Position numbers and translations under genes: made by a program. Positions 11,286 to 15,500 of a DNA stretch of 37,551 nucleotides are shown here, piece by piece. The notes under the pieces are model-generated. The model had not been told where the DNA came from, ran no database searches, and saw nothing but the letters and a program-made list of their open reading frames with translations. Source of the DNA: a virus; the UHGV virus genome UHGV-0071294. The stretch is one strand, 5' to 3'. Numbering within the stretch: the stretch's first letter is position 1; every line of letters starts with the position of its first letter.

Positions 11286-12026
11286 ATGAATGAAGCCTGT
11301 TCTGTTGTTTTTGTTCATTCCCCGTTTGTTGTGCTCTTTGAAGGAAAAGAGCTCTCTCTGGAAAGTGGTAGTGCACTTCTTGTCAGGGGGGGAGCTGGAT
11401 CGTTATTGCCCTTTTCGGAATGTTTTCGGCGAATAAGTCTCAGTGAATCAACAATTATCCGTTACCTGTTGTGTGGAGACGAAAAACAGGATGTAGTTTT
11501 AGTCCGGCAAATACCACGATATCTTTGCGTGAGTTTTCCCAAGGCAGAATTGATGGGCATCCTGATTGATTATCTCTGTGAGGAAAAGATTCATACGGAC
11601 AATTTAGCGGAAATGCTTTCCTTTTCGTGTCTGGCGTTTTTCTCATCAGAGAAAATGTTTTCGTCGTTTCTGACCGCGTGTATTGGCAATATTAGTGACA
11701 GGCTTAGTGCATTGTTTCGTACGGACATTGCAGCAAACTGGACTCTGAGAGATGTGTCTTCGCGGTTATGTATCAGTGAAAGTTTGTTAAAAAAAAGACT
11801 GAAAGAAGAAGGCACCTGTTTCAGTGAGTTGTTGCTTACAGAGAGAATGAGAATGGCAGCAATGCTGTTGAATCAATCTCGTTGCGCCATCAACAGAATC
11901 GCTGCTCAGTGCGGCTATAATTTTACATCTTATTTTATCAGCGTATTCAGGAGTTATTTTGGTGTTACACCGGCAGGTTACAGGATGGCTGCATTCAATG
12001 AGATGAGTTCTGGCTCCGCGCAATAA
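11286..12026 (+). CDS. AraC-family transcriptional regulator (cargo gene)
   Basis: C-terminal AraC-type HTH pattern (WTLRDVSSRLCISESLLKKRLK...INRIAAQCGYNFTSYFISVFRSYFGVTPAGYR); AT-rich; sits between Q/tR' and the lysis genes; possible own promoter at 11226-11252. Confidence 0.8.
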   Translation: MNEACSVVFVHSPFVVLFEGKELSLESGSALLVRGGAGSLLPFSECFRRISLSESTIIRYLLCGDEKQDVVLVRQIPRYLCVSFPKAELMGILIDYLCEEKIHTDNLAEMLSFSCLAFFSSEKMFSSFLTACIGNISDRLSALFRTDIAANWTLRDVSSRLCISESLLKKRLKEEGTCFSELLLTERMRMAAMLLNQSRCAINRIAAQCGYNFTSYFISVFRSYFGVTPAGYRMAAFNEMSSGSAQ

Positions 12027-12406: not shown

Positions 12407-12482
<76 letters not shown>

Positions 12483-12485
12483 TAT

Positions 12486-12560
<75 letters not shown>

Positions 12561-12924
12561 GATGTAAACTGACAAGGCGAAATTTTGGTACTGTTTTTTG
12601 GCACTGACACATTATATGTGGGATGTTTTCTGACTCCTTACCGCATCCTGTTCCGTAATGAAGGTGATTTGTTATGGTTCCAGTGCTGATTTTTTTACGA
12701 TACCGGAATGGTGCATTATCGGTGGAGATTTTGTATTTCCTGGCAGGGTCGGTGATGCATCATTCCGGTGTTGTAAAATACACCGCAGGGGCGTTCCTCA
12801 GTGCGAGGGTGGTTTAAAGAGTGGGTTTAGCGGGAAACCACGGTATTCATGTAGAAGTGGATACTTCGGGAGGCACCCGACACCTCTGGATACAATCAAA
12901 ACATTGCGTTATTAATGCCATTTA

Positions 12925-12949
12925 CCGCCTCCACCAGGCGGTTTTTTTT
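12925..12949 (+). terminator. Intrinsic terminator
   Basis: Hairpin CCGCCT-CCACC-AGGCGG followed by TTTTTTTT. Confidence 0.6.
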
Positions 12950-13076
12950 ATTCTGAATTCAGTTTTTCCATGGCTCGCTACGGCGGGCTTTTTTTATTTC
13001 CGCGTCACGCCCGGGGCATATCAAATAACACCACACAAAAGATATCTGCGGGTGCCTTTGACGGGGTGTTTTTTAC

Positions 13077-13098
13077 GGGCCGCTGGTGGCCCTTTTTT
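13077..13098 (+). terminator. Intrinsic terminator or attenuator immediately upstream of the holin gene
   Basis: Hairpin GGGCC-GCTGGT-GGCCC followed by TTTTTT, ending 20 nt before the holin start. Confidence 0.55.
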
Positions 13099-13117
13099 AT
13101 TTACAGGAGAAAAACGT

Positions 13118-13510
13118 ATGTCTGAACCCTTATCCGGTTCCGGCACGGCTGCGGCGCTCGGCGGGGCGACGGTATTCGGGCTGTTTACCGGAACGGATTT
13201 CGGGATTGTGTTTGGTGCGTTCGCCGGGGCGTTATTTGTGGCAACGATGCCGCAGGCGCTTTCAGCCTGGCGCGTGGCGGCGCATTTTCTGGTGTCGTTC
13301 ATTATCGGCGTGCTGGGGGCAGAGGTTCTGGCATCCTGGCTGGTAAAGCATACAGAGTTTGACGGTGCACCTGTCGACGCATTGTGTGCAGTACTGGTGT
13401 CAGTGGTGTCGGTGAAGATTCTCTCGTTCATCCACCAGCAGGATATCGCATCGCTGGTGTCAGGACTGTTCTCCCGCCTGCGAGGCGGAGGAGGCGGTAA
13501 TGTTAAGTAA
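13118..13510 (+). CDS. putative holin (multi-pass membrane protein, 130 aa)
   Basis: ATG at 13118 with RBS AGGAGA; several hydrophobic helices; first gene of the lysis cassette upstream of the endolysin. Confidence 0.55.
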   Translation: MSEPLSGSGTAAALGGATVFGLFTGTDFGIVFGAFAGALFVATMPQALSAWRVAAHFLVSFIIGVLGAEVLASWLVKHTEFDGAPVDALCAVLVSVVSVKILSFIHQQDIASLVSGLFSRLRGGGGGNVK

Positions 13511-13775
13511 CCTTCCCGGATTGCTGAATGTGGCGTTATGCACGGTTATCGTGCTGACGCTCTTTTTTTATCGTCGCCGTGATTCCAGACATAAACCACT
13601 GGTGTCATGGCTGGCCTGGCTGCTGATGCTGCTGTATGCCTTTGCGCCCCTCAGCTATCTGTGTGGTCGCCCGTTAGCAACGGGCTGGCTGGAAGTGTTT
13701 TTTAACCTGCTGTTCTGCGTGCTGGTGATACGCGCGCGCGGGAACGTCACAAAAATCTTTCCATTGTTGAGGTGA
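13500..13775 (+). CDS. second holin-like membrane protein, possibly holin/antiholin partner (91 aa)
   Basis: Strong RBS GGAGGAGG; 2-3 hydrophobic helices; lies between the holin and the endolysin. Confidence 0.45.
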   Translation: MLSNLPGLLNVALCTVIVLTLFFYRRRDSRHKPLVSWLAWLLMLLYAFAPLSYLCGRPLATGWLEVFFNLLFCVLVIRARGNVTKIFPLLR

Positions 13776-13777
13776 AT

Positions 13778-14155
13778 ATGTCGGGTAAATTCAGATTTAG
13801 TCGTCGCAGCGAAAAGAATCTGGAGGGCGTTAAACCACAGCTGGTTGCTGTCGTTCGCCGTGCGCTGGAGCTGACGGAGGTTGATTTCGGTATTACGGAA
13901 GGGCTGCGCACGAAAGAACGCCAGAAACAGCTGGTCGCGGAAGGGAAAAGCCAGACCATGAACAGCCGCCACCTGACCGGTGATGCGGTGGATGTTGTTG
14001 CCTGGGTTGGCAGCCAGGTGTCATGGGACTGGCCTCTGTACGAGAAAATCGCACAGGCATTTAAGCAGGCTGCCGCAGAGCTGGGAACTGCCATCGAATG
14101 GGGCGGGGAGTGGAAAACACTGAAAGACGGGCCTCACTTTCAGTTGAAACGATAA
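13778..14155 (+). CDS. Endolysin, peptidase M15 family (L-alanyl-D-glutamate peptidase-like)
   Basis: Motif SRHLTGDAVDV...DGPHFQL fits the zinc-binding H..D...H pattern of M15/VanY-like endolysins; ATG 13778 is chosen over the in-frame GTG at 13772. Confidence 0.7.
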   Translation: MSGKFRFSRRSEKNLEGVKPQLVAVVRRALELTEVDFGITEGLRTKERQKQLVAEGKSQTMNSRHLTGDAVDVVAWVGSQVSWDWPLYEKIAQAFKQAAAELGTAIEWGGEWKTLKDGPHFQLKR

Positions 14156-14165
14156 GCAAAACAAA

Positions 14166-14196
14166 ACCCCGGCTGCTGGAACAGTCCGGGGTTTTT
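14166..14196 (+). terminator. Intrinsic terminator after the endolysin gene
   Basis: Hairpin CCCCGGCTG...CAGTCCGGGG followed by TTTTT. Confidence 0.6.
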
Positions 14197-14287
14197 AGTT
14201 TTCACGTCAAAGAGGAAATTGTGAGTAGTGAGTACGGAGAAAATCCTCGTGGGAAAGTATAAAAGATTCTTTTTGAGGTTGTCTATT

Positions 14288-14401
14288 ATGAAAGGTATTG
14301 AAGTGGAAACTCCCGCGAGCCTTGATTTGACAAGGGCTGCGGCCTTTGCAATTCGCCTTGTGGCGGTCGCTGTTCTGATTTGGGCTGTGCGTTGGTGGTG
14401 A
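14288..14401 (+). CDS. small membrane protein (37 aa, C-terminal hydrophobic segment)
   Basis: Hand-translated MKGIEVETPASLDLTRAAAFAIRLVAVAVLIWAVRWW; its stop lies 1 nt before the next start. Confidence 0.35.
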   Translation: MKGIEVETPASLDLTRAAAFAIRLVAVAVLIWAVRWW

Positions 14402-14402
14402 T

Positions 14403-14585
14403 ATGACGCGAAAACACTGGACACACAGAATGCCGCGAACGGCGGCGAAATGGGCACTGGTAGCGATACTGGTGCCTTTTTTATTGGTGGGATGCGTCAG
14501 CCTGGATAAAGCGCGCCAGCTTTTCGATACTGCTTCTCAGGTCTGTGAAATTGTCGACGGTGTTCGGCAGTGTCTGCAGAACTGA
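14403..14585 (+). CDS. putative lipoprotein (60 aa, lipobox LLVGC)
   Basis: Signal-like segment WALVAILVPFLLVGC followed by a short mature region containing two further cysteines. Confidence 0.45.
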   Translation: MTRKHWTHRMPRTAAKWALVAILVPFLLVGCVSLDKARQLFDTASQVCEIVDGVRQCLQN

Positions 14586-14756
14586 TCGCCTGTAAGAGCA
14601 GAATATTTTGCTGAAAAATGAAGAATGCGTCAGCGTCCGGAAAGCATGAAATTCTGTGTTTGTGGCTACTCAATAAAATAAATTCTTTCTGTCGCCGCGA
14701 ATACTCAAATGTTGATCAGTGCCCGGTGCGGCGACGGGCTTCGATATCAGGAGACG

Positions 14757-15056
14757 ATGATGGAAAAAACAGAAAACAAACCGATTGTAATTGGTGCTGA
14801 TGCTGCTCCGTTTAAGTTTGAGTTGTCTCAACTGGTGGAGATGCGCATCAGTGATGAATGGGGCGAGGTTAAAGCCCGCGCGCAGTATGCGGATGGCGAA
14901 AACCAGTACTTGATCCACTACAAAGCAGCTGATGGTCGCGCCACGACGGAGTGGTTTGGTGAGTCAATGCTGGAAGCAACAGAAGATGATCGTCATCCTG
15001 GTTGTCCGGTATTTGCTGGTATGGAATTACCGGAAGGTGCGGTAGTTACTGAGTAA
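14757..15056 (+). CDS. hypothetical acidic protein (about 99 aa)
   Basis: RBS AGGAGA before ATGATG; no recognisable motif; followed by a hairpin. Confidence 0.45.
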   Translation: MMEKTENKPIVIGADAAPFKFELSQLVEMRISDEWGEVKARAQYADGENQYLIHYKAADGRATTEWFGESMLEATEDDRHPGCPVFAGMELPEGAVVTE

Positions 15057-15500
15057 CAGGCATTACAGCAGCCCTTCAGTGTGAGGGGCTGCGATAATGT
15101 TTTTGGTTTTTGGCTTTTATACCGCCACGGAAAGCAAGAGGGGAAATGTCTGAACCGAATTATGGGGTGATTAGGCATTGCCGTTTCCTGCTGCGATATT
15201 TTTAAGTTATCGGAAGGTAGCTGTGGAGTGTTTGGTCGGAAGGCGTAACAAATTTCCGGGGAAGGGAAAGTATTAGTTTGAAAACTAATGTCCAATTAAA
15301 CTCTAACATGCGTCCCTGTAAACAATAACAAGTAAGCAATCAGAGTCTTTCTAATTTACGGGAGGATACTCCCGTACTTTTTTAAAGGCAACGTGAATTG
15401 CAACGTTTGTGATGTTTACGGGTAAACAGTAACGCTTTTGATATGAATGTTTTTATCTGGTTGCTGTTTTATTCAGTTAATGTTTATAGGGAATCTTTCA

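Follow-up and report, generated by a model that had tools for sequence, protein, structure and literature searches.

Spanins are not recognisable in every phage of a Gram-negative host. A published census found none in 91 of 677 such phages (about 13%), and it assigned to phage phiP27 a 'separated' two-component spanin, with the inner-membrane component (i-spanin) at 20348-20542 and the outer-membrane component (o-spanin) at 20706-20861; both are singleton families in the census, and their combined periplasmic length of 62 aa is the shortest in it (Kongari et al, 2018; PMC6139136). Among phages encoding Shiga toxin (Stx), the Rz family is present in 277 of 279, and a metallopeptidase endolysin is limited to a two-member Stx2e cluster (PMC8136144). 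We take the two Stx phages without Rz to be this Stx2e cluster because it is the sole group with a metallopeptidase endolysin. Phage phiKT, which has no spanins, uses the cationic amphipathic peptide gp28 (bioRxiv 10.1101/515445), and the lysis of phage LambdaSo requires the small protein Lcc6 (bioRxiv 10.1101/2024.01.23.576932). Here we analyse the UHGV virus genome UHGV-0071294, a stretch of 37,551 nucleotides (the window) that represents a phiP27-like temperate phage integrated in Escherichia coli. Its lysis cassette ends with the gene of a 60-aa lipoprotein precursor, which has been predicted once before, as an o-spanin with the wrong partner.

The lipoprotein gene is the terminal gene after two holin genes and an endolysin gene in 119 distinct loci of the IMG/VR database, and temperate phages of Enterobacteriaceae, phiP27-like ones and others, have the cassette type composed of holin(s), endolysin and small lipoprotein. 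With good confidence, the lipoprotein is a lysis-cassette gene. Judging from the sequence, it would disrupt the outer membrane as a stand-alone protein in the spanin slot, a reading to which we assign a probability of roughly 0.5.

The lipoprotein precursor consists of a basic n-region of 17 aa, the h-region ALVAILVPFLLV, the lipobox LLVG/C at residues 27-31 (the codon of the lipobox cysteine, Cys31, is at 14493-14495) and a mature part of 30 aa, CVSLDKARQLFDTASQVCEIVDGVRQCLQN. This mature peptide is free of proline, amphipathic (hydrophobic moment, muH, about 0.5) and of net charge -1 (-2 to +3 across the family). Its residue +2 is Val, not Asp, and its C-terminus (...DGVRQCLQN) is hydrophilic, so that the protein has no second hydrophobic segment. 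The close family shows no variation in the lipobox (20 homologues) or in the mature cysteines C48 and C57, and in distant homologues the cysteine pair recurs as VC-x8-C. The precursor matches PHROG 7528 from end to end (E = 1.6e-38 over residues 1-60 of 60); this family and PHROG 4493, which covers the product of the small gene directly upstream, are both labelled 'unknown function'. Sequence searches against Pfam, NCBIfam, PADLOC and the Protein Data Bank (PDB) gave no match for either small protein. A profile search of 1.84 billion representatives returned 22 clusters (50% identity) alone, all of them equally short lipoproteins, with no longer or annotated relative among them. The complete family members that we recovered are 54-71 aa long, and all members seen come from Enterobacteriaceae.

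For the analysis of gene order, 160 IMG/VR loci with either of the two small proteins were collected, and the 119 distinct loci were sorted by arrangement. Among the 117 loci in which the gap between the lipoprotein gene and its upstream neighbour is measurable, 111 have one of 1, 4 or 14 nt, and a holin gene of the PF16931 type co-occurs with the lipoprotein gene in most loci. There are five main arrangements: holin-holin-M15-small gene-lipoprotein (44 loci, plus eight on incomplete contigs); holin-holin-M15-lipoprotein without the small gene, usually with a 14-nt gap (30 loci, plus one on an incomplete contig); holin-holin-GH108-small gene-lipoprotein (15 loci, plus one); GH108 followed by a 48-aa homologue (PHROG 1115), a different 44-aa transmembrane (TM) open reading frame (ORF; PHROG 4906) and the lipoprotein (10 loci, plus two); and the phiP27 arrangement with an unrelated insert (2 loci).

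Distant relatives (about 41-67% identity) extend this picture, with eight diverged members looked up and three species-representative genomes, the scan of which returned three loci. In all that we examined, the lipoprotein gene closes the lysis cassette, and in most contexts it starts -4 to +14 nt from the endolysin stop; L184 and L185 have a gap of about 190 nt, and L186 has a KilA-N-like gene in between. The genes that precede it are Holin_8, Holin_3_7 and M15 in L172 and L187; Holin_8, Holin_3_7 and GH108 in a Mu-like phage (L182), a Salmonella prophage (L186) and an LT-II prophage (L184); a lambda-S-type holin (PF05106) and M15 in L173 and L174; and the same type of holin with GH108 in L176, L179 and L188. 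The virion modules that accompany the lipoprotein are P2-like myovirus, lambda-like and Mu-like. The lipoprotein is thus linked to the cassette slot and not to one holin, endolysin or virion module, which suggests a target in the host envelope: as its place is kept while holins, endolysins and virions are swapped, it most plausibly acts on the envelope and not on a phage protein.

These exchanges also bear on the idea that the lipoprotein, with or without the small protein, regulates lysis timing as an antiholin-like factor, an endolysin regulator or a releasin-like protein. Membership of the lysis cassette would suit such a role, and small extra lysis factors such as Lcc6 of LambdaSo exist (bioRxiv 10.1101/2024.01.23.576932). 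Conservation is very strong in the N-terminal tail of the small protein, where the ratio of non-synonymous to synonymous substitution rates (dN/dS) is 0.03. Endolysin regulation has reportedly been described for phage Mu. A specific protein-protein regulator is nevertheless argued against by the association of the lipoprotein with two unrelated holin systems (PF16931 plus PF05449; PF05106) and two unrelated endolysins (M15, GH108), and we consider this role unlikely for the lipoprotein. For the small membrane protein itself, lysis regulation is a reasonable guess.

The slot of the lipoprotein holds an ordinary i-/o-spanin pair in the homologous two-holin cassettes of mEp390 and HK639. Among the related loci, Rz occurs in GER2/L167 alone, the only lineage with both Rz/Rz1 and the lipoprotein, and its lipoprotein copy is disrupted by a frameshift and by two TAG codons in frame. 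The sequence-only reading had noted that the cassette of the window is without a canonical spanin, and each further search agreed with it: tblastn with lambda Rz, GER2 Rz and the i- and o-spanins of mEp390 gave no match in the window, a six-frame lipobox scan over both strands of the 37.5-kb window returned the 60-aa ORF as the sole lipobox ORF, and an ORF scan of the window for an N-terminal transmembrane domain (TMD) followed by a sizeable periplasmic domain gave no credible i-spanin. The PGAP annotation of the near-identical prophage of E. coli CEA224S is likewise without any spanin. When relatives were read ORF by ORF, no TMD-bearing ORF adjoined the lipoprotein gene in L172-L174, L176, L178, L182 and L186-L188, and no i-spanin candidate stood beside it in L017, L018 and L052. 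An i-spanin in another frame over the 3' end of the endolysin gene or over the lipoprotein gene was rejected since no candidate has a TMD, and the downstream ORFs (99 aa; 62/72 aa) were rejected as partners because they are soluble.

Comparison with the curated spanin set showed that the lipoprotein is already listed there, as the predicted o-spanin of phiP27 (PMC6139136): the census entry is the present lipoprotein ORF read from an internal ATG. The i-spanin of the census (L001 5289-5483) is a TTG-start ORF with no family match; antisense to it, the other strand has a 90-aa ORF with a full-length match to PHROG 36812. Of the 119 loci, 2 have the TTG-start ORF and 117 do not, and the window does not have it either. 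Being rare among the loci and antisense to the PHROG 36812 gene, it was rejected as the missing partner, and it is probably spurious. We conclude that the published phiP27 pair is half right, in that the lipoprotein stands alone without that i-spanin. In the phiP27 record, gene L32 is a wrong-frame annotation over the lipoprotein gene.

A partner closer at hand would be the small protein encoded directly upstream, and the sequence-only reading had proposed that the two genes form a non-canonical spanin-like pair. Spelled out, this would be a miniature two-component spanin in which the small protein serves as i-spanin and the lipoprotein as o-spanin of a complex across the periplasm. The genes are adjacent, 1 nt apart, which suggests translational coupling; they encode one membrane protein and one lipoprotein in the spanin slot; and Kongari et al accepted a very short two-component system (62 aa of periplasmic length) for phiP27 (PMC6139136), whose i-spanin, however, is the antisense TTG ORF present in 2 of the 119 loci. 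The topology of the small protein does not suit the role, as a basic N-terminus is followed by a C-terminal TMD at AAAFAIRLVAVAVLIWAV and then by RWW alone, with no periplasmic domain. The distribution of the genes does not suit it either. The lipoprotein occurs without the small gene in 31 of the 119 loci, where it follows the endolysin gene, in all distant homologues and in phiP27, and other loci carry different small TM genes in between. Conversely, the small gene lies 1 nt 5' of a canonical Rz (TGAtATG junction) in 669 of 5426 complete E. coli genomes, O157:H7 included (counted at >= 80% query coverage); the arrangement of the window, small gene followed by lipoprotein, is found in about 108 of those E. 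coli genomes. In Stx phage GER2, the small gene encodes a protein 89% identical to that of the window, with mostly synonymous differences between the genes, and ends in tggtgatATG as in the window, the ATG opening there a canonical Rz with embedded Rz1. Because the two genes are distributed separately and the small protein has no periplasmic domain to reach the lipoprotein, we reject the pair: the two are separable modules and not a functional spanin-like pair, and a miniature spanin is very improbable.

A lipoprotein at this position might instead be a moron comparable to Bor, Cor or Llp, which the prophage would express for lysogenic conversion or superinfection exclusion and which would have nothing to do with lysis. 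Its gene has the lysis genes on one side and the terminase on the other, the location of bor in lambda, and obvious morons occupy neighbouring sites (a K88-like fimbrial subunit and an AraC regulator in the window; stx2e or LT-II in relatives); the gene is, however, on the late strand, coupled to its upstream neighbour (gaps of -4 to 14 nt), and we found no sigma-70-like promoter 5' of it on the + strand. The terminator that separates it from the endolysin gene in the window would fit a moron, but in 30 loci it starts 14 nt after the M15 stop with a Shine-Dalgarno sequence alone in between. A moron would also be expected to stand without an i-spanin partner, as the lipoprotein does; yet the lipoprotein is decayed where Rz/Rz1 is present (GER2), has no Pfam or PADLOC match, and occurs with P2-like myovirus, lambda-like and Mu-like virions and hence does not co-vary with the receptor-binding protein. 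Finally, a terminator-like hairpin in its own 5' coding region would block non-antiterminated expression. We regard a moron as unlikely. The lysis-regulator and exclusion-lipoprotein suggestions of the sequence-only reading are both less likely for the lipoprotein because it is indifferent to holin, endolysin and virion type.

The intragenic hairpin comprises 11 bp followed by U6AUU (dG about -18 to -20 kcal/mol; z = -4.2 for a 71-nt window compared with shuffles). Hairpin and U-tract are kept in seven of nine diverged lineages, in which wobble changes preserve pairs and a few double changes occur. The hairpin is missing in L174 and in the Mu-like phage L182, which makes no use of Q antitermination. 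Covariation is not significant, as the observed values were reached by 31-99 of 500 shuffles. Leu codons 27-28 are UUA/UUG in most lineages that keep the U-tract, and UUC/UUU CUG in phiP27-type alleles. The hairpin may restrict lipoprotein expression to late transcripts that are antiterminated; alternatively, it may simply result from the sequence coding for ALVAILVPFLL.

If the lipoprotein is a stand-alone disruptor of the outer membrane, its gene would be transcribed late, jointly with the holin and endolysin genes, and the precursor would be exported, lipid-modified at Cys31 and, with Val and not Asp at +2, sorted to the outer membrane. There it would present a 30-residue amphipathic helical peptide with two invariant cysteines, and after the endolysin has cleared the peptidoglycan, this peptide would destabilise the outer membrane without a dedicated inner-membrane partner. 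The lipoprotein would then be an o-spanin-like protein that acts alone where related cassettes have an i-/o-spanin pair. We infer three possible routes: the lipoprotein may oligomerise by way of its Cys pair, its amphipathic helix may insert into the inner leaflet, or it may act in a way similar to the colicin release proteins. More speculatively, and rather doubtfully, the lipoprotein could represent a third kind of outer-membrane breaching device after spanins and the cationic disruptin, namely a Cys-stapled amphipathic lipopeptide of 30 residues, anchored in the outer membrane, that would complete lysis with no inner-membrane partner and whose synthesis would be gated by the terminator in the signal-peptide codons so that antiterminated late transcripts alone make it.

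Several points weigh against a lone action at the outer membrane. The function is assigned from gene position and protein features. A periplasmic peptide of 30 residues cannot reach across the periplasm, and modelling of the lipoprotein alignment with AlphaFold2 gave a single long helix at low confidence (pLDDT 65). Because the peptide is short and, unlike the phiKT disruptin, non-cationic, no known mechanism of outer-membrane disruption transfers directly. The complementarity of lipoprotein and Rz is based on one lineage (GER2/L167), and in the window a terminator precedes the unit of small gene and lipoprotein, as it would a moron. The LT-II toxin prophages Rac-SA53 and SerU-LTIIb (L170, L171) have the same holin-holin-endolysin order with toxin genes directly after it and neither lipoprotein nor spanin, so that the lipoprotein is dispensable at least for prophage persistence; the related LT-II prophage L184 retains it. 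A host protein or a holin may also be the partner of the lipoprotein.

Both small ORFs are real genes under purifying selection. Across 69 distinct IMG/VR alleles of the lipoprotein gene, dN/dS (pairwise Nei-Gojobori on distinct alleles) is 0.21 overall, 0.16 in the mature part and 0.28 in codons 2-17; internal stops are absent from all 69, and 67 end at one common stop codon. The small gene has a dN/dS of 0.11 over 13 distinct alleles, and none of the 13 sequences is disrupted. Mosaic junctions, the pseudogene copy in GER2 and annotations that differ between records could be taken to mean that the prophage is decaying and that both ORFs are mere remnants of mosaic recombination, without a function. 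Purifying selection, the lack of disrupted alleles in both sets and the presence of the genes in sequenced phages, which include phiP27 (lipoprotein) and phiSTEC1575-Stx2k, leave this explanation scarcely credible. As for the start of the lipoprotein gene, PGAP uses the ATG at 14430, which yields 51 aa. The 60-aa start (14403) is better supported because of the constraint on codons 2-17, the basic n-region kept in distant homologues and the Shine-Dalgarno sequence AGGTG, which precedes this start where the lipoprotein gene directly follows the endolysin gene.

The small gene is annotated at 37 aa by PGAP and at 57 aa in phiSTEC1575-Stx2k. It probably starts 13 codons further 5' than the 37-aa form, at the GTG at 14249, and then encodes 50 aa (MGKYKRFFLRLSI-MKG...), because the codon at this position is GTG, ATG or TTG across loci, and nothing else, and because the match of the 50-aa form to PHROG 4493 begins at profile position 1 (E = 1.1e-23, positions 1-54 of 56). 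A 45%-identical homologue has an ATG start one codon 3' of the equivalent position, preceded by AAGGAG. In the 50-aa form, residues 1-29 carry a net charge of +3. The gene is an independent, mobile module of terminator, short leader and tail-anchored inner-membrane protein between the endolysin and the next outer-membrane gene, and its 3' neighbour is more often Rz/Rz1 than the lipoprotein. The terminator at 14167-14196 forms the 5' edge of this mobile module and is kept in GER2, L017 and L052; it is flanked by A/T runs on both sides, its minus-strand fold is the same hairpin followed by a U-run, and it may work in both directions. By analogy, our guess is that the small protein might modulate the inner-membrane step of lysis. 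As a widespread member of E. coli lysis cassettes, O157:H7 prophages included, it has so far gone unstudied.

On the minus strand, a sigma-70-like promoter, TAGACA-18-TATACT (14285-14256), faces the terminator at 14167-14196. An antisense RNA of about 90 nt could conceivably cover the 5' region of the small gene (region 14152-14285, minus strand), which would resemble the layout of a type I toxin-antitoxin system; against Rfam, this region gave a sub-threshold 'sar' match alone (E = 0.9).

The coordinates of all features are collected below. Positions 13000-15100 are 95.5% identical to Stx2e phage phiP27 over 86% of that stretch, and positions 14100-14760 (661-nt query) are 99.8% identical to the prophage of E. 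coli CEA224S, to which PGAP assigns a lambdoid early region and a P2-like myovirus tail. The cassette composition read from the sequence alone held in all parts: PF16931, PF05449 and PF13539 confirmed two holin-like genes and an M15 endolysin, the two small genes do lie 1 nt apart on the 3' side of the endolysin gene and its terminator, and the features predicted for their products, a hydrophobic C-terminal segment (TMD) in the 37-aa protein and the lipobox LLVGC in the 60-aa protein, are both present.

Features of the lysis cassette and its surroundings in the window (positions of the 37,551-nt stretch)
Feature	Position	Strand	Family or remark
Three consecutive intrinsic terminators	12924-13100	+	Directly 5' of the first holin gene
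Holin-like gene 1, 130 aa	13118-13510	+	PF16931 Phage_holin_8, PHROG 198
Holin-like gene 2, 91 aa, 3-TM	13500-13775	+	PF05449 Phage_holin_3_7, PHROG 217; 11-nt overlap with holin-like gene 1
Endolysin, M15 metallopeptidase, 125 aa	13778-14155	+	PF13539, PHROG 465
GC-rich intrinsic terminator hairpin, CCCCGG...CCGGGG + T5	14167-14196		Read in the sequence, partly flagged by a terminator scan
Small tail-anchored membrane protein gene	14249-14401 (37-aa ORF from ATG 14288 to TGA 14401; 50 aa from GTG 14249)	+	PHROG 4493
Lipoprotein precursor gene, 60 aa	14403-14585 (ATG)	+	PHROG 7528; one spacer base after the 37-aa ORF
Terminator-like hairpin inside the lipoprotein signal-peptide codons	14452-14485	+	11 bp, 4-nt loop, then TTTTTTATT
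Conserved 23-nt box GCAGAATATTTTGCTGAAAAATG	14598-14620	+	Begins 13 nt past the lipoprotein stop
Soluble 99-aa ORF	14757-15056		
K88/FaeG-type fimbrial subunit gene	15501-16274	+	PF02432, E = 3e-48
Terminase	from 16618		

The triple terminator is the layout typical of a Q-antiterminated late leader. Further 5' of the holin genes are an AraC-type regulator gene (11286-12026, +) and the genes of tRNA-Thr and tRNA-Gly (12407-12560, +), at the place where phiP27 has tRNAs and stx2e; an Rfam scan of the region gave the two tRNAs alone above threshold. On the other side, the K88/FaeG-type gene stands alone between lysis cassette and terminase, and such an orphan fimbrial subunit is unusual for a prophage. 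Both the fimbrial-subunit site and the AraC/tRNA site are moron insertion sites.

Traces of mosaic exchange surround the lipoprotein gene. The 23-nt box (GCAGAATRTTYTGCTGAAAAATG; window 14598-14620, L005 2949-2971) follows the lipoprotein stop by 13 nt in 112 of the 114 loci with the exact pattern and directly follows the stop of the R endolysin in the remaining two (GER2, L167); the box is probably the mark of a module border at which mosaic recombination takes place. The GER2 pseudogene (L005 4476-4681) lies 3' of Rz/Rz1 and of a reverse-strand ais-like phosphatase gene, and it keeps the 'gtggtgatATGacgcg' junction, which means that this place has a second copy of 8 nt from the 3' end of the small gene. 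The site just 5' of the lipoprotein start is an insertion hotspot: elsewhere, inserts between endolysin and lipoprotein genes occur at L052 4662-4996, L186 3444-4004 and L006 2895-3428, and they include the 48-aa homologue of the small protein (PHROG 1115) with the 44-aa TM ORF of PHROG 4906 and, in another case, a KilA-N-like gene whose stop overlaps the lipoprotein start.

To our knowledge, phiKT gp28 is the only alternative outer-membrane disruptor that has been characterised, and our literature search found no experimentally characterised lone lysis lipoprotein. The present lipoprotein is a compact candidate in a clean three-gene cassette of toxin-converting prophages (Stx2e, Stx2k, LT-II), in which lysis controls toxin release. 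If it works alone, it would provide a new mechanism of outer-membrane disruption, the published two-component spanin annotation would be corrected, and annotators would have a rule to apply to cassettes of this type; otherwise, these phages would be a natural case of lysis without an outer-membrane step.

Compared with known systems, the lipoprotein resembles o-spanins of the lambda Rz1 type in being a small lipobox lipoprotein with a precursor of about 60 aa and periplasmic cysteines. Like an o-spanin, it is encoded at the end of the lysis cassette, where relatives have Rz/Rz1, and it is expected from its sequence to be sorted to the outer membrane. It differs from lambda Rz1, which is Pro-rich and unstructured, in that its mature part of 30 aa is Pro-free and predicted to be helical; it has no similarity to any Rz1 or to any PHROG or Pfam spanin family, and its conserved basic n-region is unusually long. 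Unlike a two-component spanin, it has no i-spanin partner in the contexts examined, and with 30 mature residues and no partner domain it cannot span the periplasm. The unimolecular spanin (u-spanin) gp11 of phage T1 is likewise encoded by a single gene in the spanin slot and has an N-terminal lipoprotein signal; the C-terminal TMD that defines u-spanins is absent from the present lipoprotein, which is also far too short for the periplasm. From the morons Bor, Cor and Llp it is set apart by the absence of Pfam and PADLOC matches and of a promoter-like site on the + strand and by its association with unrelated virion modules. The small protein, for its part, can be likened to Lcc6 of Shewanella phage LambdaSo, a lysis-cassette membrane protein of about 50-65 aa, by size and context and not by homology.

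Two systems come closest to the proposed lone action. The disruptin gp28 of phiKT is also one small amphipathic helical peptide that is proposed to breach the outer membrane without bridging (bioRxiv 10.1101/515445). Unlike this cationic peptide, the lipoprotein described here is predicted to be lipid-anchored, is close to neutral (-2 to +3) and contains a pair of conserved cysteines, and the two are not homologous. gp28 itself is not known to be a lipoprotein. The colicin lysis (bacteriocin release) lipoproteins, in turn, are lipopeptides with about 28-33 residues in the mature form. They permeabilise the envelope with no partner in the inner membrane, and their signal peptide may have a part of its own to play; they are Gly/Ser-rich, not helical, without a Cys pair and encoded in colicin operons. 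The lipoprotein of the window differs from them in sequence, to which it has no similarity, in having no Pfam match (E <= 0.1, Lysis_col) and in belonging to a prophage late operon, and what it has in common with them is its size and predicted lipid anchor alone.

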